Positions 2 to 19,284 of a stretch of 32,000 nucleotides of DNA are shown piece after piece (position 1 is the first letter of the stretch; each line of letters starts with the position of its first letter). Under the pieces are notes generated by a model, which was not told the DNA's origin, did no database searches, and saw only the letters and a program-made list of their open reading frames with translations. The DNA comes from a virus. Both the position numbers and the translations under genes were made by a program. The stretch is from the IMG/VR virus record IMGVR_UViG_3300045988_146550, positions 1,207 to 33,206 of that record. One strand, given 5' to 3'.

Positions 2-451
2 ATCAGTGAATACGGTTTAGAAAATGGACGCGTTGACTATGGAACTCTAGCAAAGGCTTTCGATGCCGTGTTAAACAATGACATCATGAACTTAACATAT
101 GACATAGGCTATTGGGAGCAAGTGAGCGGCATTATTGACAATTCAGAAGAAATAGAAGAGTTAGAAGAAAAAAGAGATGAGTTAGAAGAAGAAAACGAAA
201 GCAGCCCATCCCAAATTTTAGAAAATGAAATAAATGAAATAAATGAACAAATAGAAGAACTTGAAAATGAACAAGACAACGACCCCGAGGTATTTCAATG
301 GTTTATTGTGGATGATTGGGGCGCTAAACTTCTACAAGATATAAGCGAAATTGTGTATTACAACGAAAAGCTAGATATGTATTTATGGGGCGTTACACAT
401 TATGGTACATCATGGGATTATGTTCTTACGAACATTAAAATTGATTGGTAG
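2..451 (+). CDS. Hypothetical protein, 5'-truncated by window edge, with a strongly acidic E/N/D-rich middle segment
   Basis: Frame is open from nt 2 (no stop upstream of the GTG listed at 68) and stops at TAG 449-451. Contains IEELEEKRDELEEENE...NEINEINEQIEELENEQDND and a C-terminal WGVTHYGTSWDYV. No domain recognised. Confidence 0.5.
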   Translation: MSEYGLENGRVDYGTLAKAFDAVLNNDIMNLTYDIGYWEQVSGIIDNSEEIEELEEKRDELEEENESSPSQILENEINEINEQIEELENEQDNDPEVFQWFIVDDWGAKLLQDISEIVYYNEKLDMYLWGVTHYGTSWDYVLTNIKIDW

Positions 452-631
452 GTGTAATATTCCAATGTTAACACGCAAAGATCTTGACAAGATGAGCGCC
501 GTCCAGGTGCTCATACTTGCATTATTAAAATTCTACTTCTATATGTGTTTTGACATGTTGTTGATAGGCTTATTTTTAGGCCTATCAAACATAATACTAC
601 CACTTATTTATTAATTGCAGGAGGTTAAACA

Positions 632-904
632 ATGGAACTTTTAGAAATTAAATTATTGCATAAATACGCAAGAATAAGATCATATATGAATGATCTTATT
701 TCAGGTAATTACATTATTTATGATTTTCTTTATGAATGTTTAGTTGATCATATTGAATCTTTTATTTTTGATCTTGCTTATATAGAAAATGAGAAAGTCA
801 TAAATATTTATTATGATCAACTATTAAGCGATTCTAAACAAGTAAGTAACAAACTTTATACACTTGTTATAAATATTTTTGAAGATAATGAATGGAGGTT
901 TTAA
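632..904 (+). CDS. Hypothetical protein (90 aa)
   Basis: ATG preceded by gcaGGAGGttaaaca. No domain recognised. Confidence 0.6.
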   Translation: MELLEIKLLHKYARIRSYMNDLISGNYIIYDFLYECLVDHIESFIFDLAYIENEKVINIYYDQLLSDSKQVSNKLYTLVINIFEDNEWRF

Positions 905-906
905 AA

Positions 907-1137
907 ATGAATAACAAAGAATATATTGAATTTACAGAAAAAAAACTAGATCGACTAAATGGATCTAGCTGCAAACCTTACACAATAACCAAACATTTAA
1001 ACGGTTTATATGATCTTAATTATGGTTTAGATACCATTGTGTGGATGCTTGAACCGCGCGAACTTTGGTTATTTGTAAATACTTTGTATACGTTGGATAT
1101 TTTAGGAGGCCTTAAAAATGACAATATGGAAGCGTGA
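907..1137 (+). CDS. Hypothetical protein (76 aa)
   Basis: ATG at 907 lies 8 nt after GGAGG (894-898). The track start at 892 would overlap the upstream stop. Confidence 0.6.
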   Translation: MNNKEYIEFTEKKLDRLNGSSCKPYTITKHLNGLYDLNYGLDTIVWMLEPRELWLFVNTLYTLDILGGLKNDNMEA

Positions 1138-1705
1138 GCGAACTCATTTTAATTACTATATCACAAACGAAAGAAAGCAACCCCACATTTATGTTGAAGC
1201 GTTAGGAGCTCCCAGCGCTTCAACTGAAAAAATTTTAAAAGATCATGGTTTTAAGTTTGATCATAATAAATGCATGTATGCAGCAGCTCAAACAAATGAA
1301 TTAAGGCTTTTTGTCGCTCATGATCTTGATAAACTTTTCAATTATGATATTCATTTGTTTTTTAACACTGAAGCAAAAAAAGAACTTTTTGCGCCTGATA
1401 TCCAGGAAATAAAAGATATCTGTTATTATTTCAAAATTTATAAATGCTATATTGATATTTTAAACAAGGATCTTTTTAAGATCTGTAAGCCAGGCTCAAA
1501 AAGCTTGCTGGCAACTTACAACACTTATTCAAAAACTATAGACGTTTTTAATAGAAACAAATTACAAGAAAGTTATATATACAATGATGGAAAAATCGAA
1601 AAAATCAGTATTGAAAAAGCTGCACCAAAAAAGAAGAAAAAAGCAGCACTTACAGAACAACAAAAGATCAACAAAATGCTTGAAGAGTTTGAGTTTCCAT
1701 TTTAG
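1118..1705 (+). CDS. Hypothetical protein (195 aa), Lys-rich C-terminal region
   Basis: ATG preceded by ttAGGAGGcc. Contains APKKKKKAALTEQQ near the C-terminus. No domain recognised. Confidence 0.6.
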   Translation: MTIWKRERTHFNYYITNERKQPHIYVEALGAPSASTEKILKDHGFKFDHNKCMYAAAQTNELRLFVAHDLDKLFNYDIHLFFNTEAKKELFAPDIQEIKDICYYFKIYKCYIDILNKDLFKICKPGSKSLLATYNTYSKTIDVFNRNKLQESYIYNDGKIEKISIEKAAPKKKKKAALTEQQKINKMLEEFEFPF

Positions 1706-1717
1706 GAGGTAAAGAAA

Positions 1718-2032
1718 ATGAAAAAAACTGTTTACGATATTAAATGTTTATGTAATTTATTGCAATATATGAGCCGTGAACCAGGCTTATTCAGTAATGG
1801 ATATATTAGCTATATATCAATTGGAAGATATGCAAAATATGTTGATTTGCATTTTATGAATGGATCTGTTTACAATTTTGATTCATACACAAAAGCTTTT
1901 CTATATGATCAACTTTTAAGATATGCAAAAAAACATCTCGTAAAATGGGATCAAAAAGAAAAAAGCAAACGCGAAAAAAATCGCTTCAATCACGCAAAAA
2001 GAGAAATTGAAAAAATTGAAAAGGACTTGTAA
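1718..2032 (+). CDS. Hypothetical protein (104 aa), basic C-terminal tail
   Basis: ATG preceded by ttAGGAGGtaaagaaa. The stop codon lies in the loop of the downstream terminator hairpin. Confidence 0.6.
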   Translation: MKKTVYDIKCLCNLLQYMSREPGLFSNGYISYISIGRYAKYVDLHFMNGSVYNFDSYTKAFLYDQLLRYAKKHLVKWDQKEKSKREKNRFNHAKREIEKIEKDL

Positions 2033-2069: not shown

Positions 2070-2594
2070 TCAGCTTTTTTTGATTGGATTCGATGCGAAA
2101 AAGTTCATGAAAAGTTTAGTTTTAAACTCATATTCTTTTTGATCCATTTCTTTTATATCCAAAACTCTTTTAAATATCACTATCGCAATAAAGTTTGCAA
2201 ACAAGTTTGCATCTTTTTCTATTTCCTGATTCTCATAGTGTTTGCTGCTTGAATCTGCATAGTTTTCAAGTTCCTTTTTCCATATAGAAACACTTCTTTC
2301 ATCTATAGAAAACACTTTTTGATTCTTCTTATATACACATGCATATTGGTATAAATGTCTTATTTCATGTGCAAGATATATATAAACTAAACTACTATCT
2401 ATGGATGTATTCAGGTTTACACAAATTACATTTTCTTTTGGGTATGATGTGCATATGCTTGTATCTTTTACTTGAAAAAGTTCTTTATTGACTGGTTTAT
2501 GTTTAAGATCATAAACCTTATCATTTACTTTAAAGTAAACTTTTGGAATCTTTATATTTAATAGTGTGCATAGAAAACTTACATAATCATTCAT
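2070..2594 (-). CDS. HExxH zinc metallopeptidase, ImmA/IrrE (M78)-like
   Basis: Contains ...ICVNLNTSIDSSLVYIYLAHEIRHLYQ... followed by QEIEKDANLFANFIAI, matching the HExxH plus downstream E..(D/E)AN.FA pattern of ImmA/IrrE-type peptidases. Recognised by eye only. Confidence 0.5.
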   Translation of the reverse strand: MNDYVSFLCTLLNIKIPKVYFKVNDKVYDLKHKPVNKELFQVKDTSICTSYPKENVICVNLNTSIDSSLVYIYLAHEIRHLYQYACVYKKNQKVFSIDERSVSIWKKELENYADSSSKHYENQEIEKDANLFANFIAIVIFKRVLDIKEMDQKEYEFKTKLFMNFFASNPIKKS

Positions 2595-2600
2595 GCATCC

Positions 2601-2629
2601 ATTATATCTGAAAAACTTTATTTTGAAAA
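2601..2629 (-). promoter_or_regulatory. Putative promoter of the ImmA-like gene (TTTTCA-N17-TATAAT) giving a near-leaderless mRNA
   Basis: On the minus strand, -10 TATAAT is at 2606-2601 and -35 TTTTCA at 2629-2624. The ATG at 2594 is only 6 nt after the -10 and there is no convincing SD. The -35 sits inside a 10-bp direct repeat (plus-strand TGAAAAACTT at 2609-2618 and 2624-2633). Confidence 0.4.
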
Positions 2630-2631
2630 AC

Positions 2632-2907
2632 TTATTTATCTAAGATTGTAAACACTTTTAGTAAATTTGATTTTGAATAAAGTTGAAAATAATTTGAATC
2701 CTTTTTATGATTATTTCCAATATCTTTATTCAATAACTTTGCAACCAAACCATCAAACTTTTCTTTATTGACCATGAAATACCATAATACTTTAGAAATA
2801 TCTGTTCCTAAAGATATAATTTCTTCATAATCTGAACATACAACAACTATTTCTGTATGTTTATAGCTTATATAAATACGTCTATCTAAAAACTTGTCTT
2901 CAAACAT
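2632..2907 (-). CDS. Small K/F-rich protein, paralog A of a three-member family
   Basis: SD AAGGGGTG precedes the ATG. Shares the N-terminal M.E.KF...VVCS and the C-terminal L.KVF.ILDK with ORF 2919-3206. Confidence 0.65.
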   Translation of the reverse strand: MFEDKFLDRRIYISYKHTEIVVVCSDYEEIISLGTDISKVLWYFMVNKEKFDGLVAKLLNKDIGNNHKKDSNYFQLYSKSNLLKVFTILDK

Positions 2908-2918
2908 TCAAACACCCC

Positions 2919-3206
2919 TTACTTATCCAGGATCATAAAAACTTTTTCAAGTTGTTCTTGAGACGTTGGAAAAAACTTTTGAGATTCTTTTTCGTGTTTG
3001 CATAGAATCGAACCGTCAAAAAACTTTTTTAGTAACTGAGAAAACTTTTCTTTCTTCACATAATAAACATAATTCACAGACACATCTTCATCATCATGTG
3101 CATTGTATTCAAAAACTTTTTCAACCATCTTAGAACAAACAACACCAATTTGTACATTATCATATCTCACAAAAACTTCTTTGTAAGAAAACTTATTTTC
3201 GTCCAT
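2919..3206 (-). CDS. Small K/F-rich protein, paralog B
   Basis: Start moved to the ATG at 3206 (MDENKFSY...), which follows AGGAGTG. The C-terminus EKVFMILDK matches paralog A. Confidence 0.65.
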   Translation of the reverse strand: MDENKFSYKEVFVRYDNVQIGVVCSKMVEKVFEYNAHDDEDVSVNYVYYVKKEKFSQLLKKFFDGSILCKHEKESQKFFPTSQEQLEKVFMILDK

Positions 3207-3228
3207 TTCATCACTCCTAAAAAAATTT

Positions 3229-3570
3229 CTACATATCAATCAACGCTCTTAAAAACTTATTATATTCTTCTTCTGATTTTAGATAAAACTTATTGCAACC
3301 ATTCATTACGTCTTCATAGTTTAAGCAATCAATTTCATTATCTAAAAACTTTCTATATAAACTTTTGAATTGCGATTCACAAATATAATGCTTAATAACG
3401 AGTATACCATTCTTATCATAATTACACCTATAAAACTCTTCATCTGCCATATAAACACATACAATATGACCTTCCCATTGTACAAATAAACTTTCTGTAT
3501 TACGAATCAGAAAAAACTTTTTCACTTCTGTTAAAAACCTTCTCACAATATCACTCCTATTTATCTGCAA
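3229..3570 (-). CDS. Small K/F-rich protein, distant paralog C
   Basis: Has the same size class and similar HIVCVY / KFL / NKFLRALIDM motifs. Overlaps the upstream lipoprotein gene end by 14 nt. Confidence 0.55.
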   Translation of the reverse strand: MQINRSDIVRRFLTEVKKFFLIRNTESLFVQWEGHIVCVYMADEEFYRCNYDKNGILVIKHYICESQFKSLYRKFLDNEIDCLNYEDVMNGCNKFYLKSEEEYNKFLRALIDM

Positions 3571-3832
3571 TCGTTTCTACGTAACAATTATAATAAATAT
3601 ATCTTTTTCCATCATAGTCAAATTTTACACATCCACCATCCTTTGCTTCAATATCAATTTTCCCCTCATAACTTGCTAAAATTTTTCCATCTGCTGTATA
3701 CACATTGATTATTCTATCCAATCCACCATTCAAATCTGATTTTATATCAGTACCCCAACGATCCGCAGATGCACATCCAAATAAGGAAATGCCAATCATT
3801 CCAACCATTAATAATTTGTATATTTTATTCAT
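3557..3832 (-). CDS. Small secreted lipoprotein (91 aa), paralog of 3973-4374
   Basis: Signal peptide plus lipobox (MVGMIGISLFGC). Shares the YEGKIDIE... core with the neighbouring lipoprotein (VEGKISIE). Confidence 0.7.
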   Translation of the reverse strand: MNKIYKLLMVGMIGISLFGCASADRWGTDIKSDLNGGLDRIINVYTADGKILASYEGKIDIEAKDGGCVKFDYDGKRYIYYNCYVETIADK

Positions 3833-3972
3833 TTTATTCCTCTTTTCTATGTCCGATAACTATATATTATCAGACTAACCACAAACCTTTTAAAAGCCTA
3901 GTAAATAGGCTACTTTGTAACTCTTTTCTAAAATAAAAACTTTATGAATTTTTGAGCCATGCTATAATGTGT

Positions 3973-4374
3973 TTATTTATTTGTATCTTCTACGTTAATC
4001 AAGCCATGTTCAATCGTTTCTTTAGCAGGAAAGAATGTTATTTTATATCCATACGGATTTTCTTTTACCGAATCGGTCTGAATACTTGTATATGTTACAT
4101 CTTTTGATAAATGTGCATAGAACAATTTATATTTATCTTTTCCAGTTTTAATCGTTACATTCAAATCGCCATCACTATCTGTTTCAATAGATATTTTTCC
4201 TTCAACAGAAAACAACGGTTCATTTGTTCTAGTATTTAATGCCACAACCTTTCTCGATATTTTAAAGTTGTTTGCATCCACTCTTAAATTATGATTAGCT
4301 GTATCTGATTCTTGGCATCCTACCAAACCTAGACACATTGTCATTCCTAAAATTGCACATAATATTTTTTTCAT
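3973..4374 (-). CDS. Small secreted lipoprotein (133 aa)
   Basis: Signal peptide plus lipobox (MTMCLGLVGC). ATGA start/stop overlap with the upstream regulator gene. Confidence 0.7.
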   Translation of the reverse strand: MKKILCAILGMTMCLGLVGCQESDTANHNLRVDANNFKISRKVVALNTRTNEPLFSVEGKISIETDSDGDLNVTIKTGKDKYKLFYAHLSKDVTYTSIQTDSVKENPYGYKITFFPAKETIEHGLINVEDTNK

Positions 4375-4838
4375 TTGTTCAAATCTCCCATAACGAGCTT
4401 TTTAAGCTCTTTTTTCATTGCGTAATACATTTTCATTCTGCTACAGTACTTTTCTCCTGAAAGCTTCTCAAACGACTCTCCATTGATATAATGACGTTTC
4501 ATATACAAACGAATATCATCATCCGGAATAAGATCAATAATCGTTTCAACTTCTCTCATCTTTCCTAAGATAAGATTCTTGTCGTCTTCAAGCACTTTTT
4601 CTTTTGAAATAAACTTTACAAGAACATCATTAGTAATATCCTTATTTTTCTTTGAATCCAACCTTTGTTCAAACGATGGAGATTTTGGATCTGAAAATTC
4701 TTTTTTACGAACTTCCAAATCCTTCAAAATTCCATCCAACGATTTAAACTTTCTTTCATAAATCCTGAACATTTCAAGTTTTTTAATCAGTGTATCCACC
4801 TGAACATCTACATATTCTTCATAATCCGTTTTACTCAT
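4371..4838 (-). CDS. Putative late-gene transcriptional activator with a sigma-70 region-4-like C-terminal HTH (ArpU/RinA-type position)
   Basis: C-terminus reads DDIRLYMKRHYINGESFEKLSGEKYCSRMKMYYAMKKELKKL, which looks like a region-4 HTH. SD AGGAGA precedes the ATG. It lies at the distal end of the early/replication operon. Confidence 0.45.
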   Translation of the reverse strand: MSKTDYEEYVDVQVDTLIKKLEMFRIYERKFKSLDGILKDLEVRKKEFSDPKSPSFEQRLDSKKNKDITNDVLVKFISKEKVLEDDKNLILGKMREVETIIDLIPDDDIRLYMKRHYINGESFEKLSGEKYCSRMKMYYAMKKELKKLVMGDLNK

Positions 4839-11641: not shown

Positions 11642-12444
11642 TACATCTTCATTCCTTTCGTGATCACAAAATTATTTGTTTTTTGTTTAGGTGCTACACT
11701 GTTCAGATAAATTTCAAACTTAGATCCAAACAACGTATCCGGTCTTAGATACTTATTCATCTCTGTATCGTTTAACCATTCATGCGCTTTCACATCAATC
11801 ACAAGCTTAAAGTCTTCCAAGCTAAAGCCTTCATTCCATCTAGCCCGAATCTTCTCTCTAGCAATGCGATTACTGTGTTTGTAACGCTTTGAACATTTAG
11901 AATTCAAGTAGTCAATAATTTCAACATAAGGGATTGTTTCTGATGCTGATAAATCAGTGTCGTCGGAACTTTCTTTTATATTTCTTTTATTATTAACTGT
12001 GTATATAAATGTTTTATTAACTGTCTTACATTGGACAGATTTGTCTTTTGTACATTGGACAGATTTGTCTTTTGTACATTGGACAGATTCGGTAAATGCA
12101 TTGGGCAAATTTGACCAATCGATAGATAAAGCATTTTTTAACTTTTCACCCATATTTCCAAATGCATACCAGCTTGTTTGATTCCAAGGATTTTCATTGT
12201 AATTTCCTTTGATAATCAAATCTTCATCAACCATTTTTTGAAGTATTCTTTGTATCTTTTTTTCACTCCAGTATGGAAATAATTTTTTAAATCCTTTTGC
12301 AGAATTAAACGTCCAATATTTTCCATCATGATAGTTGTAATTATTTGCTTCATTTTTGTTGATCCAAAAACAAAACATATCAAATACAACAGCAACTTCA
12401 ATGCCGTATTTGTCGGCAATTGCAATTTCAAAACTGTGTTTCAT
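11641..12444 (-). CDS. Replication initiator / replisome organiser (DnaD-like N-terminus, conserved phage C-terminal domain)
   Basis: C-terminal IIDYLNSKCSKRYKHSNRIAREKIRARWNEGFSLEDFKLVIDVKAHEW...YLRPDTLFG is the Phg_2220_C-type motif of phage DnaD-domain proteins. Carries internal iterons. Confidence 0.75.
   Translation of the reverse strand: MKHSFEIAIADKYGIEVAVVFDMFCFWINKNEANNYNYHDGKYWTFNSAKGFKKLFPYWSEKKIQRILQKMVDEDLIIKGNYNENPWNQTSWYAFGNMGEKLKNALSIDWSNLPNAFTESVQCTKDKSVQCTKDKSVQCKTVNKTFIYTVNNKRNIKESSDDTDLSASETIPYVEIIDYLNSKCSKRYKHSNRIAREKIRARWNEGFSLEDFKLVIDVKAHEWLNDTEMNKYLRPDTLFGSKFEIYLNSVAPKQKTNNFVITKGMKM
11991..12113. repeat. Putative origin of replication: 24-bp iterons inside the initiator gene
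   Basis: CATTGGACAGATTTGTCTTTTGTA at 12029-12052 and 12053-12076 (identical). Partial copy at 12077-12089 and a degenerate copy at 12099-12113. TATTAACTGT occurs at 11991-12000 and 12015-12024, also 24 bp apart, flanking an AT-rich stretch. Confidence 0.65.
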
Positions 12445-13320: not shown

Positions 13321-14220
13321 CTACTTTCTTTTCGCATAACTCAATGATTCAAGATTCTGCTTTTTCATTTTCCTTGTTGTACGAACATAGATTCTTGTAG
13401 TTTCTAAACTAGAATGTCCCAAAATGTCAGCCAATTCAGCAATGGCATTTTCACCATTCTGCATCAAATACTGAATTGCAAACAAATGTCTGAATGCATG
13501 AGGATGTACTTTACCAAGCTTAATCCCTCTGCATTTACCAGCAATCATCTTTAAGTCTCTAGATAACACACGAGCGTTTACAGGGCTTTTCTTATCAGAA
13601 GATGTAAATATATACCCTTCTTCAATTTTGTTGTCCTTGCAGTATTTAAGGAGTTCTCGTCGCAAGTCTGAACGTAGGATGATTCCTCTACCTTTTCCTT
13701 TGTTCATAACATACACATTATCATCCGTTACTGCTTCTACAGTGAAGAACTGTAGTTCACTCAAACGAATGCCCGTATACCCAAATACCTTCATGATCTC
13801 GTATAAGTCCATACGATTGATTTCTCGGGCTTTTTTCAATAGTCTTTGAAATTCATTAGGTTCTAGAATATCATCCAAAGAATCGTCTTTCTGGACTCTT
13901 ACGTTCTTCAATAAATTCTTTGAATAATATTTTTTAAGTTTCAGGAAATTGAAATCATCATCTGAATCTATGATTTCTGCATATTTAATAAATTTATTAA
14001 TTATCACAATATAGTTGTTTACTGTACTGATTTTATAATCATGCAGCAGTTTATCTTTAACACCAACTATATCGGACTTTTGTATTTCACCATCAGGCAA
14101 TGAGTCAACAAACAAAGTAGCAACATGCTTGTATTTACGAATGGTATTCTTACTTTTCTCATCCGCTGTTTCTTCTTCAATAAACCCGTCAATTTTTGTT
14201 TGTAACTCATCCTTAGTCAT
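13321..14220 (-). CDS. Tyrosine recombinase, XerC/XerD-like (299 aa)
   Basis: Catalytic signature present: TGIRLSEL (R), HPHAFRHLFA (H-x-x-R), LGHSSLETTRIYV (H...Y). N-terminal SAM-like domain and no arm-binding domain. Confidence 0.85.
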   Translation of the reverse strand: MTKDELQTKIDGFIEEETADEKSKNTIRKYKHVATLFVDSLPDGEIQKSDIVGVKDKLLHDYKISTVNNYIVIINKFIKYAEIIDSDDDFNFLKLKKYYSKNLLKNVRVQKDDSLDDILEPNEFQRLLKKAREINRMDLYEIMKVFGYTGIRLSELQFFTVEAVTDDNVYVMNKGKGRGIILRSDLRRELLKYCKDNKIEEGYIFTSSDKKSPVNARVLSRDLKMIAGKCRGIKLGKVHPHAFRHLFAIQYLMQNGENAIAELADILGHSSLETTRIYVRTTRKMKKQNLESLSYAKRK

Positions 14221-14503: not shown

Positions 14504-14764
14504 CTAGCACTCTTGTCCAAGAGTGCTTTTTATTTGTTCCTTCCAAATGTCATTAAGCGCACTTTTAGTCTCAGGAAAATACTCAACAAATATTGGAGTG
14601 GGAACTGCAAGAATCTTTCCAAGCATAGTGTCTCGATATGATCCTTCAAATATTTCACCCTTTTTATTTTTTTGTCTGCGTAGATTATGTAAAATCTTTC
14701 TAGCCTGTGTATCTTTTACAGGTAAAACAAGCATCACATCTCTAACAGTCACATATGCTTTCAT
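14504..14764 (-). CDS. Excisionase/Cro-like HTH DNA-binding protein (86 aa)
   Basis: Start at the ATG at 14764 (MKAYVTVRDVMLVLPVKDTQARKILHNLRRQ...), coupled by ATGA to the upstream small ORF. The N-terminus resembles MerR/excisionase-type HTH proteins. Tentative. Confidence 0.4.
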   Translation of the reverse strand: MKAYVTVRDVMLVLPVKDTQARKILHNLRRQKNKKGEIFEGSYRDTMLGKILAVPTPIFVEYFPETKSALNDIWKEQIKSTLGQEC

Positions 14765-14910
14765 TTTTCTTCGTTCTCCTTTCCTTCTGAATCTTGAATT
14801 TTGCTTCGATCTAAAATACACGCGATATATCCTTGGTCATACTCTTCGATGTCATAACCCATCTTCTCAAGCTTTTCCAAGGCTTCTTTGACATTTTCAT
14901 CAGCTGACAT
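14761..14910 (-). CDS. Small acidic protein (49 aa), first gene of the rightward (lytic) operon, not in track
   Basis: GGAGGATGTG precedes the ATG at 14910. Sequence MSADENVKEALEKLEKMGYDIEEYDQGYIACILDRSKIQDSEGKENEEK. The stop overlaps the next start (ATGA). No HTH evident. Confidence 0.5.
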   Translation of the reverse strand: MSADENVKEALEKLEKMGYDIEEYDQGYIACILDRSKIQDSEGKENEEK

Positions 14911-14926
14911 CACATCCTCCTTACTC

Positions 14927-14992
14927 GTGTCTTACATACACATTATAGTGGCTTATAGCCACGTTGTAAAGTTTTTTGTGTCTTAAGTTTAC
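14927..14992. promoter_or_regulatory. Three 15-bp operator-like sites of the lysis/lysogeny switch
   Basis: GTGGCTTATAGCCAC (14948-14962) has perfect 6-bp inverted arms. GTGTCTTACATACAC (14927-14941) matches it at 11/15 positions and GTGTCTTAAGTTTAC (14978-14992) at 9/15. Site starts are 21 and 30 bp apart. Confidence 0.55.
14942..14970 (-). promoter_or_regulatory. Lytic (early) promoter TTTACA-N17-TATAAT
   Basis: On the minus strand, -35 is at 14970-14965 and -10 at 14947-14942. The perfect palindrome fills the spacer. Confidence 0.6.
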
Positions 14993-15016
14993 TTTTTATT
15001 TTTGCATTGCTATAAT
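14988..15016 (+). promoter_or_regulatory. Repressor promoter with extended -10 (TTTACT-N17 incl. TG-c-TATAAT)
   Basis: TATAAT at 15011-15016 is preceded by TGc (15008-15010). The -35-like TTTACT at 14988-14993 overlaps the third operator-like site. Confidence 0.55.
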
Positions 15017-15037: not shown

Positions 15038-15439
15038 ATGGATGATAATATCGGTTTTAGAATAAATAAAGTTAGATCACAATTGAACTTAAGCATGGAA
15101 AAATTCGGCAATAAAATCGGTATTTCTAAAAGTTCTGTGAATAAATTAGAAAAAGGAATTAACCAGCCTTCAGAACAAACTATAAAATTAATTTGTAGTG
15201 TATATAACGTTGACTATGCATGGTTAACTCAAGGTGTTGGAGAAGATATTTTTATTTCCATTCCTGAATCAAAGATAGATCAAATCATGGAAGATTATGG
15301 CTTAACCGAAAAAGAGCGACCACTTGTTCGAGGATATTTGGAAGCGCCCGAAGAAGTCAGACAACAAGTTGCCGATTATTTAAATTCAATTGTCGAAAGA
15401 GAAATAGCAAGAAGAGAAAAAGAAAAGAACAACAAATAG
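15038..15439 (+). CDS. XRE/cI-type phage repressor (HTH_3) without a peptidase S24 domain
   Basis: Contains IGFRINKVRSQLNLSMEKFGNKIGISKSSVNKLEKGINQPSEQTIKLICSVYNVDYAWL. Only 133 aa, with a short acidic/basic helical C-terminus. Divergent from the early operon. Confidence 0.8.
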   Translation: MDDNIGFRINKVRSQLNLSMEKFGNKIGISKSSVNKLEKGINQPSEQTIKLICSVYNVDYAWLTQGVGEDIFISIPESKIDQIMEDYGLTEKERPLVRGYLEAPEEVRQQVADYLNSIVEREIARREKEKNNK

Positions 15440-17824: not shown

Positions 17825-18041
17825 ACAATTTGTGTATATGGTGGGGCGATAGTTCCCACATCTCATCAGAATTTACATTCCTACCCTTGACACTTTCGTG
17901 CGCGATAGCCATCTTTCTATCCTCACATACACAATCAGAATGTTTTCTTTCAGCCAATAGACCTATCCAGTTCGAGGTGAACACAAACAACCCTACGGAA
18001 GCTATAAGCACTATGCATGCTGGAACACAATACTTAATCAT
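17823..18041 (-). CDS. Possible small membrane protein (72 aa) in a locally higher-GC islet
   Basis: N-terminal TM helix CVPACIVLIASVGLFVFTSNWIGLL. Weak SD. A hairpin follows directly. A mirror plus-strand ORF of the same length also exists, so coding status is uncertain. Confidence 0.35.
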   Translation of the reverse strand: MIKYCVPACIVLIASVGLFVFTSNWIGLLAERKHSDCVCEDRKMAIAHESVKGRNVNSDEMWELSPHHIHKL

Positions 18042-18186
18042 AGCTTAACAGAACCTAATCTGTGACAAACAAGATAGAGCAGCAAGCTTATCTTCATCCG
18101 TATATTACATTATTTGCTAGTGAATTTCAATCAAATTTCTCCTATTTTGTACTTTTTTGTAACATTGTGTAATCTAATATCACTTT

Positions 18187-19284
18187 TTATAACAACTTAT
18201 TCATCATATCTACAATACTCTTATCTTTTGTATCAAACCAGTGTGCATATGTATTGTGCAATGTTTCAACTGTATCTCCTAAGCGTTTGGCTATGTCAAA
18301 ATCTGAGAATCCAGCTCCTGCCATGTTATTAATTAGAAATGATGCGTGTGAATGTCTAAAATCATGAATTCTTATTTTAGGCAATCCATCATCTTTTTCT
18401 TTTGCCTTGTTATAAGCTTCATCAAATCTTCTTTGTACCGTCTGAGGTGATATTGGTTTATAGTATCCAAACACAAATTTATCTTTTGTGAAATCATCCC
18501 ATTTAGAACATTCTAGAAACCATTCACGAAGCATTTTAGACAAAGTATTAGGCATTGTGATAGTTCTATAGCTATTGTTTGTTTTTGGCGGTGTAAGCCA
18601 TTTATTAGGGTCTTTCTCTTTGTATCTATATGTTTTGTTGATGTCTATAGTTTGTTTTCTAAAATCAATGTCCTTCCATTGTAGGGCCATGGCTTCACCT
18701 TTTCGTAATCCCATATAGAATAAAACAGAATAAAAACATTTCATCATTTGTTCACCCACTTCTTCAATGAATAAATCAAAATCATATTGCTGCCATATTG
18801 TCATTTCTTCTTTTCTTTCATTAAGTCTTAGATCACGTTTCACATATGTCATTGGATTTGATTGGATGTATTCAGAAGTAACACCAAATTTATATAGCTT
18901 ATTTAAAAAGAAATATATTCTTGATACATATGCCTTTGAATATTTCTCATCAAATTTGTTGATCAAGTTTTGCATTTGCCTTTTATCTAAAAAATCAATA
19001 TCTTTCATTTCCTTAGAAAGAACATTGTACAAATATTCATCTGATTTTAAAGTTGATTCTTTTACGTACTTTTTGTTGTACTCCTTAAAAGCTTTATATA
19101 GTCTATCAAAATTCATATCTAATGGAAGCATAAAGAAATCTTTTCTGAATTCAACCTCAGCTTTCTGTGCTTCCCATTTAGAATCAAAACCACGCTTACG
19201 ATATCTCTTTATACATTTACCATCCTTATATATTTTTCCGGCAAACATATATTTTCCTGTCTTCTTATCTAATTCCACTGCCAT
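18187..19284 (-). CDS. int: Phage tyrosine integrase with an N-terminal arm-type DNA-binding domain
   Basis: N-terminus MAVELDKKTGKYMFAGKIYKDGKCIKRYRKRGFDSKWEAQKAE looks like an Arm-DBD. Catalytic residues present: YMGLRKGEA (R), IRIHDFRHSHASFLI (H-x-x-R), LHNTYAHW (Y). SD AGAGGG. Confidence 0.9.
   Translation of the reverse strand: MAVELDKKTGKYMFAGKIYKDGKCIKRYRKRGFDSKWEAQKAEVEFRKDFFMLPLDMNFDRLYKAFKEYNKKYVKESTLKSDEYLYNVLSKEMKDIDFLDKRQMQNLINKFDEKYSKAYVSRIYFFLNKLYKFGVTSEYIQSNPMTYVKRDLRLNERKEEMTIWQQYDFDLFIEEVGEQMMKCFYSVLFYMGLRKGEAMALQWKDIDFRKQTIDINKTYRYKEKDPNKWLTPPKTNNSYRTITMPNTLSKMLREWFLECSKWDDFTKDKFVFGYYKPISPQTVQRRFDEAYNKAKEKDDGLPKIRIHDFRHSHASFLINNMAGAGFSDFDIAKRLGDTVETLHNTYAHWFDTKDKSIVDMMNKLL

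Follow-up and report, generated by a model that had tools for sequence, protein, structure and literature searches.

A zincin-like peptidase gene in a variable segment of a temperate phage genome

The stretch of DNA analysed here (the window) comprises 32,000 nucleotides of a virus, positions 1,207 to 33,206 of IMG/VR record IMGVR_UViG_3300045988_146550, and represents a temperate siphovirus-like genome with a G+C content of about 30%. A long early operon on the minus strand, extending from about position 14910 down to 2070, ends in a gene (2070-2594, minus strand) for a stand-alone zincin-like protein of 174 amino acids (aa), referred to below as the peptidase, and three small paralogous genes (A, B and C) precede it on the same strand. 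A first-pass annotation, made from the letters of the window, had singled out the gene by its motifs HEIRH...EIEKDANLFA and by its place as the last of the operon, and this open reading frame (ORF) was confirmed. The gene was characterised by family alignment, an AlphaFold2 model and the ratio of non-synonymous to synonymous substitution rates (dN/dS), and its occurrence was compared across related phages and other mobile elements.

The peptidase gene, its family and its predicted fold

The two motifs of the peptidase (HEIRH, H76-H80; EIEKDANLFA, E124-A133) constituted a family signature and not a chance resemblance, because residues H76, E77, R79, H80, Q83, W105, Q123, E126, D128, A129 and F132 were invariant or nearly so in an alignment of 56 family sequences, which gave the consensus HExRHxYQ...W...Y.NQ.iE.DA.aF. 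Among close relatives the gene showed a median dN/dS of 0.16, and is therefore under purifying selection. A comparison of 3' ends in 15 loci revealed a homopolymer of seven A residues (2075-2081, minus strand) where relatives mostly have eight, and as a result the window protein is frameshifted near its end, terminating in ...NPIKKS instead of ...NPIKKKLIQKELKRH and lacking about 10 C-terminal residues. The same A7 variant was carried by one relative (L009), and it may be either a real polymorphism or a homopolymer sequencing error. Degraded copies of the gene, truncated or frameshifted, were found in a few cases (P0039-P0041 and L010).

A word-indexed search returned only close relatives of the peptidase (57-95% identity), and a HMMER profile search of 1.84 billion representative proteins returned 88 relatives, mostly of 170-190 aa. 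The window protein gave no match to Peptidase_M78 (PF06114, gathering score 22 bits) at E<=0.1; the nearest Pfam family was DUF6782 (PF20573), a putative metallopeptidase family, with a score of 19.7 bits (below the cut-off of 27) over profile positions 73-115 of 241. When the 56 members were scanned individually, 26 matched DUF6782, 6 DUF3920, 4 SprT-like and 3 Peptidase_M78, with best E-values of 1.6e-7 for DUF6782 and a weak 2.4e-4 for Peptidase_M78. DUF6782 was thus the best Pfam match of the family, yet its gathering score was passed by two distant relatives (P0126, 30.3 bits; P0197, 27.5 bits) over only about 50-60 positions, and the matches of the family as a whole spanned about 45-60 of the 241 profile positions, corresponding to the strand and helix around HExxH. 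None of the papers in the literature collection searched mentioned DUF6782, a sequence-profile search of the PDB with the peptidase returned noise only, and searches of NCBIfam and PADLOC gave no meaningful match for the peptidase or the paralogs.

Modelling with 12 close homologues gave a mean predicted local distance difference test score (pLDDT) of 48, and the AlphaFold2 model became confident (pLDDT 90.1; predicted template modelling score, pTM, 0.88) only once distant relatives had been added. In the predicted structure, an N-terminal helix and a four-stranded sheet (strands at residues 18-60) come first, and after them the HExxH helix (67-88), a helix that bears the conserved W105, a helix (124-141) with E126 and D128, and a C-terminal helix. 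A mixed beta-sheet, an HExxH helix and a downstream helix with a candidate acidic ligand, as expected of a zincin of the gluzincin type, were thus all present in the model. Foldseek comparison with the PDB gave weak matches with template modelling (TM) scores of 0.3-0.45, namely anthrax lethal factor (E=7e-3), abylysin and IrrE (3dti, E=0.064, TMq 0.38), and among viral models the top match was a phage protein described as 'IrrE N-terminal-like' (E=2.8e-4, TM 0.43), followed by SprT-like and polyvalent-protein zincin domains. All high-probability neighbours were zincins, and lethal factor, abylysin and the SprT-like proteins scored much like IrrE; with TM-scores below 0.5, the comparison therefore supports the fold class and not a specific family. 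As modelled, the peptidase is a gluzincin-type zincin that lies outside every named family.

The likeness to ImmA and IrrE suggested by the first-pass annotation is accordingly confined to motifs and fold class: the structural model and profile searches called for at that stage yielded a confident zincin fold with a weak resemblance to IrrE, and no M78 profile match. The peptidase resembles ImmA, IrrE and MpaR (Peptidase_M78, COG2856) in being a small HExxH zincin, cytoplasmic by prediction, on mobile elements of Firmicutes, in its downstream helix of the form E-x-[D/E]-A-N-x-F-A, and in having IrrE among its structural neighbours; it differs in the missing PF06114 match, in the additional helix with the conserved W105, and in TM-scores of only 0.38-0.43. 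In M78 proteins the motif E-x-E-A-N-x-F-A follows HExxH by about 25-30 residues, and in IrrE (ligands H82, H86 and E113) the spacing from HExxH to the glutamate is about 27 residues. In the peptidase, 46 residues separate H80 of HExxH from the helix E126-K-D128-A-N-L-F-A, with the W105 helix between them. A similarly long spacing is found in anthrax lethal factor (H686, H690 and E735), which together with the abylysin-type minigluzincins provided the top PDB neighbours; those proteins (lethal factor belonging to M34) differ from the peptidase in that the matches were marginal (E 7e-3 to 4e-2, TM 0.3-0.45, 12-18% identity) and came with no sequence-profile match.

A variable segment and its counterparts in other elements

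Relatives of the phage were fetched independently of the peptidase, via paralog B and via the dUTPase gene in the middle of the early operon with 10-kb flanks, after which their gene content was tabulated. The peptidase gene was present in 13 of the 17 such relatives that covered the region and absent from four (L004, L007, L016 and L022). In these four, homology stopped at the stop codon of paralog A (about 2639) and resumed at about 1690-1720 within a convergent 195-aa gene, the missing stretch being a clean segment of about 0.9 kb (window positions ~1720-2638). Between the flanks, three of the four had 198-228 bp, and L004 had about 0.8 kb with a different gene. The segment that is absent as a block (1718-2638) consists of a spacer, the peptidase gene, a hairpin and a convergent gene of 104 aa (1718-2032), and shows presence/absence polymorphism between conserved flanks.

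Most of the 37-nt spacer (2595-2631, minus strand) consists of a 15-nt unit, AAATAAAGTTTTTCA, that occurs twice (repeat at 2609-2637; L021 has three units), and across 17 relatives the spacer hardly varied. It contains a promoter-like site, TTTTCA (2629-2624) and TATAAT (2606-2601) separated by 17 nt (10 of 12 consensus positions), of which the TATAAT ends 6 nt ahead of the ATG at 2594; no Shine-Dalgarno sequence precedes that ATG. On the other side of the gene, a terminator-like hairpin of 10 pairs flanked by A and T runs (2019-2042) lies between the peptidase gene and the convergent gene at 1718-2032, and could serve both strands as a terminator. In a second phage lineage, a diverged homologue lies just after a hairpin and likewise has no Shine-Dalgarno sequence, with a -10-like hexamer (TAAAAT) placed exactly 6 nt ahead of its ATG; family members in other contexts have ordinary Shine-Dalgarno sequences. 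Since the -10/ATG layout is shared by both phage lineages, a leaderless transcript is a reasonable inference there.

In this second lineage (for example L033) the homologue is 36-38% identical to the window peptidase and occupies a slot between two conserved small genes, after a gene for a PemK/MazF toxin. The slot held the homologue in 13 of 35 copies, the others containing different small, often acidic proteins or a TnpB-like insertion. Two further phages (L085 and L086) carry a homologue at the early/late junction on the opposite strand, and three prophages (L011, L080 and L082) carry one between the lysis genes and the integrase gene. Conjugative or integrative elements also encode homologues (L012-L015 and L078): one integrated element carries in addition an ArdC-N protein, and an integrative and conjugative element (ICE) of Amedibacterium intestinale carries a relaxase, SSB and RadC, its homologue being followed by a weakly PemK-like gene. 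In this ICE (L012-L015, 5541-8558), the homologue lies downstream of a gene for a LexA-like repressor with helix-turn-helix (HTH) and S24 domains and of a UmuC-like (IMS)/YolD pair, a neighbourhood that suggests SOS-linked expression of the homologue.

In the arrangement of promoter-like site, single gene and terminator-like hairpin, in its presence/absence polymorphism among syntenic genomes, and in lying where early and late genes meet or where lysis genes adjoin the integrase gene, the peptidase cassette resembles the phage genes called morons; the term denotes an arrangement and not a function.

Longer members of the family linked the peptidase to polymorphic effectors of the type VII secretion system (T7SS). 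In these proteins (P0161, P0189, P0193 and P0197) the catalytic core, corresponding to residues ~53-136 of the peptidase, is located at the C-terminus behind WXG/LXG-like regions, and in P0194 behind a Listeria-Bacteroides repeat. Such effector-type relatives had hmmsearch E-values of 6.7e-6 to 8.6e-4 in the database of 1.84 billion proteins. An N-terminal WxG motif could be read from the sequence of P0193, and the gene for P0197 follows two WXG100 genes and precedes a gene for a small lipoprotein-like protein. When a profile of close homologues of the peptidase was aligned with P0197 by hhalign, the whole catalytic core was matched (probability 96.8%, E=2.3e-10, 36% identity over 80 columns). 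The zincin catalytic core is thus homologous in the two groups. The phage protein differs from the WXG/LXG-type effectors in that the 174-aa window protein has no N-terminal extension and no WXG/LXG trafficking domain, and in having its own N-terminal beta-sheet region and C-terminal helices. This kinship suggests that the module acts on bacterial proteins in conflicts, which fits the variable cargo slots that it occupies in phages and ICEs.

Repressor, toxin genes and paralogs in relation to the peptidase

The cI-type repressor of the phage is an XRE/HTH_3 protein of 133 aa (15038-15439, plus strand), encoded divergently from the early operon and followed by a gene for an Ltp-type lipoprotein. 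Its Pfam matches were of the HTH_3 type only (residues 8-69), and Peptidase_S24 gave no match in the 133 aa; judged by this domain content, the repressor does not cleave itself. In Firmicutes prophages, short repressors of the XRE type that have no S24 domain are common. Among 40 window proteins scanned with Pfam, no other peptidase family was detected except the CHAP domain of the endolysin, and a motif scan of all ORFs in the window and its relatives, aimed at a hidden ImmA gene of the canonical type, recovered only members of the peptidase family. The first-pass annotation was therefore right to describe a non-cleavable repressor 12 kb away (12.4 kb by the present coordinates) from the only protease-like gene of the window.

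From these facts it had been proposed that the two genes form a displaced ImmR/ImmA-type switch, and the comparative data weakened that proposal. Neither adjacency to nor co-inheritance with the XRE repressor, as in M78 systems, was found: the separation was 12.4 kb in all relatives, the peptidase gene is dispensable, being absent from four of 17 relatives, and the repressor of L022, which has no peptidase, was 99.2% identical to that of L025, which has one. Three immunity alleles of the repressor (about 63%, 78% and 98-100% identity to the window copy) were distinguished among L017-L027 and L076, and peptidase identity did not track them, L024 having a peptidase of 99% with a repressor of 63% identity and L027 having values of 93% and 100%, respectively. 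The peptidase is thus unlinked to the repressor and is probably not its dedicated anti-repressor.

A looser version, in which the peptidase would be a facultative ImmA-like anti-repressor, expressed at a low level from a leaderless transcript in the lysogen and cleaving the C-terminal half of the repressor upon stress, while induction of phages that lack the gene would depend on a protease in trans, is compatible with the comparative results, and we regard it as unlikely. It would account for a repressor that has no S24 domain in a window where no other peptidase family was found, the fetched relatives showing no ImmA-type motif, and it draws on the M78-like E-x-D-A-N-x-F-A helix and on the presence of IrrE and an IrrE-like phage protein among the structural neighbours. 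The repressor alleles differ almost only in their N-terminal HTH half and are nearly identical in the C-terminal half (from about residue 65), suggesting a shared dimerisation or signal-sensing domain, so that one protease could serve all of them; in one prophage (L080) an HTH_3 gene lies directly upstream of the homologue. Reliance of phages on a metalloprotease supplied in trans has a precedent in the Listeria protein MpaR (PMC6872733). Against it stand, besides the distance and the near-identical repressors with and without peptidase, the missing PF06114 match and the spacing of 46 residues instead of about 27, the occurrence of homologues both as T7SS effector domains and in elements that also encode an S24-type repressor, and the lack of an operator-like repeat at the putative peptidase promoter. 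The peptidase need not be the partner of the repressor, and an in-trans protease or an anti-repressor are candidates for induction of this phage.

Three operator-like GTGKCTTA repeats were noted at 14927-14998, between the repressor gene and the early operon, one of them forming the palindrome GTGGCTTATAGCCAC. Control of the peptidase promoter by the repressor was considered and rejected, these repeats being restricted to the switch region and one unrelated site. The early operon seemingly begins with an acidic ORF of 49-50 aa (14761-14913) that has a strong Shine-Dalgarno sequence, and not with the ORF of 105 aa listed first. A small gene upstream of the L085 homologue was considered as an HTH gene like that of L080, and it showed no Pfam match and no similarity.

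It is likewise improbable, to a slightly greater degree, that the peptidase is a toxic effector for abortive infection or host killing, that is, a growth-arresting protease that would be neutralised by an unrecognised partner or expressed late. The sharing of its catalytic core with LXG/WXG-type effectors that have candidate immunity genes downstream speaks for such a role, as does the company of PemK-type genes, the second-lineage homologue lying two genes after PemK/MazF (E=3e-18) and the Amedibacterium homologue being followed by the weakly PemK-like gene mentioned above. All 35 genomes with the slot, however, carried the PemK gene irrespective of the peptidase, and this gene was therefore rejected as a specific partner; in addition, no immunity candidate was recognised in the window and PADLOC gave no match. 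In the second lineage itself (L033 12879-14526, 35 IMG/VR loci) the PemK/MazF gene is a conserved one with no recognisable antitoxin.

The three paralogs lie immediately upstream of the cassette on the minus strand: A (2632-2907, 91 aa, with a good Shine-Dalgarno sequence), B (2919-3206, 95 aa from an ATG at 3206 after AGGAG, the open frame extending to 3239) and C (3229-3570, an ORF of 113 aa from a TTG at 3570). Their paralogy and the lengths of A and B agreed with the first-pass annotation; the 113 aa given there for C is probably too long, as C more likely starts at the GTG at 3546 after AGGAG at 3558-3554, giving 105 aa, and its relatives were called at 105-109 aa. A and B were 36% identical (E=2e-13) and B and C 25% (E=2e-5); A and C were not significantly similar on their own and were linked via B, and all three aligned colinearly. 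A hidden Markov model (HMM) of the paralogs detected two to four copies in each of the close relatives and no copy in the other loci that were fetched, and a profile search of 5.8 billion proteins gave 212 matches, none with a Pfam domain; the matches listed all appeared to come from the same phage family.

Peptidase and paralogs had also been suggested to form one system, the paralogs being substrates, inhibitors, immunity proteins or protease-gated effectors. In the window and in 13 relatives, peptidase and paralogs lie next to each other in the same orientation, the AAGTTTT motif described below runs into the peptidase spacer and the first codons of the gene, and arrays of small paralogs resemble the immunity-gene arrays found beside toxin domains. 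Each was nevertheless found without the other: paralog arrays of two to four copies occur without the peptidase in L004, L007, L016 and L022, and homologues free of any paralog turned up in the second lineage, in four further prophage contexts, in two conjugative or integrative elements and in T7SS loci, the paralog HMM giving no match beside those of the second lineage, the ICEs and the T7SS. Linkage is therefore incomplete and specific to one lineage, an outcome that the first-pass annotation had itself named as refuting the system idea. The paralog closest to the peptidase gene was of type A in some peptidase-bearing relatives and of type B in others, and a role as zincin immunity proteins was rejected, the paralog HMM matching neither the candidate immunity proteins of the T7SS loci nor the neighbours of other family members. 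With no conserved linkage, and with 212 matches that have no Pfam domain and, among those listed, come from one phage family, a joint system is very improbable, and the paralogs are a separate lineage-restricted gene family that shares a variable region with the peptidase.

The paralogs had been called K/F-rich, an appearance that turned out to be partly a nucleotide-level signal. The sequence AAGTTTT occurs in 16 copies on the minus strand at 2580-3942, the only minus-strand copies in the 32-kb window. The copies fall into all three reading phases and extend into the non-coding spacer that precedes the peptidase gene. The 8-mer AAGTTTTT occurred 17 times against 6.3 expected, with 11 occurrences within 909 bp. 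Lys-Phe dipeptides were encoded by AAG-TTT in 10 of 10 cases in the paralogs versus 5 of 27 elsewhere in the window, and third-codon positions were invariant at 21 of 24 sites inside the motif versus 162 of 278 outside it; it is this codon and synonymous constraint that points to the nucleotide level. All close relatives, whether they carry the peptidase or not, had an array of 13-20 copies, which was absent elsewhere. A phasing of about 10.5 bp was considered, and start-to-start distances, judged by eye, showed no regular period. The array might serve as a set of binding sites for a factor of the phage or of its host.

Two small lipoprotein genes (3557-3832 and 3973-4374; DUF5052-like and Phage_VG64/phrog_478) are situated just upstream of the paralog array. 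Each was variably present among relatives, so that the positions between about 1700 and about 4400 as a whole form a hypervariable cargo region. An Rfam scan detected no RNA family in the peptidase/paralog region.

In the remainder of the window, tail and lysis genes extend from 31983 to 19605 (minus strand) and an integrase gene (tyrosine recombinase; 18187-19284, minus strand) occupies the usual place beside the lysis genes. The early operon encodes a second tyrosine recombinase, a Phg_2220_C/DnaD-like initiator, a DnaC-like loader, a dUTPase_2 protein, an HNH nuclease and a DUF1492 regulator (4371-4838). The second recombinase (13321-14220, 299 aa), located inside the operon, was 97-99% conserved among relatives. 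Within the initiator gene, a perfect 24-nt tandem repeat (2.6 copies, 12027-12089) encodes a repeated SVQCTKDK peptide and probably marks origin iterons. Two Rfam non-coding RNA motifs above their gathering scores lie side by side on the minus strand (17833-18046), between the integrase gene and a PBECR3 nuclease gene, namely a drum RNA (RF02958, 17935-18046, 74.8 bits) and a skipping-rope RNA (RF02924, 17833-17931, 57.9 bits), and the 72-aa ORFs listed over them are probably spurious. A block of small genes (68-2032, plus strand) is convergent with the early operon here and co-directional with both early and late genes in the second phage lineage (L033 15875-17151), and appears to have been inverted in one of the two lineages.

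Searches of a phage record collection at the DNA and protein level gave no match. Its close relatives were contigs of 45-50 kb from human metagenomes, and the sole reference-genome match in a scan of GTDB genomes was a single locus in a metagenome-assembled genome of an uncultured Solobacterium. Together with the annotation of distant peptidase-family members in Amedibacterium intestinale and Longibaculum, this match identifies the hosts as Erysipelotrichaceae.

A cassette-borne protease and its possible role

With these alternatives weighed, the reading that we favour, and hold to be somewhat probable, is that the peptidase gene is an optional, self-contained zincin cassette of the moron kind that acts on a protein of the host or of a rival element. 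The peptidase would be a cytoplasmic, stand-alone zinc metallopeptidase in which H76 and H80 bind zinc, E77 serves as the catalytic base, and E126 (or E124) on the following conserved helix provides the third zinc ligand. The cassette would have a promoter and a terminator of its own and yield a leaderless mRNA, and would fill a cargo slot where the early and late modules meet. The substrate of the enzyme would be a bacterial protein, encoded by the host or by a competing mobile element, and cleavage may serve host takeover, anti-defence or element-element conflict. A protease for anti-defence or conflict that acts alone had been mentioned more loosely in the first-pass annotation, and it is this idea, unproven as it is, that is favoured here.

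Several observations weigh against this interpretation. In one 90%-identity cluster (P0008, 24 member sequences) H76 is replaced by Y, so that catalysis may not always be needed. Promoter-like sites were not enriched in this AT-rich DNA (28 found versus 30.5 expected from shuffles), and the near-leaderless promoter claimed for the gene, which does have a promoter-like site 6 nt from its ATG and no Shine-Dalgarno sequence, is for this reason plausible but unproven. In prophage L080 the HTH_3 gene ends 1 nt before the homologue, which would fit an ImmR/ImmA-like pairing; this arrangement was seen only in L080 among the contexts examined, and the same phage also encodes an S24-type repressor. No neighbour of the peptidase in the window resembles the candidate immunity proteins of L083 or L084, and no PADLOC, NCBIfam or informative PHROG match favoured a role in defence or anti-defence, the PHROGs search giving one weak match to a family of unknown function.

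A broader proposal, possible though doubtful at present, is that the cassette represents a new family of leaderless, cassette-borne zincins used by phages and conjugative elements of gut Erysipelotrichaceae against host or rival proteins, a module that would also have been recruited as a T7SS toxin, with the AAGTTTT motifs of the paralogs as a possible binding array.

For the study of phage switches, the comparative genomics presented here indicates that it is unsafe to pair a repressor of the XRE type without an S24 domain with any nearby HExxH protein. For the peptidases, it defines a family of about 90 representatives at 50% identity, with a confident model and a clear motif, in which cargo genes of phages and ICEs are linked to T7SS effector domains, and whose seemingly leaderless arrangement has been kept in two diverged phage lineages. 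If the substrate is a host defence or regulatory protein, the family would add a further class of protease to the conflict between mobile elements and their hosts.

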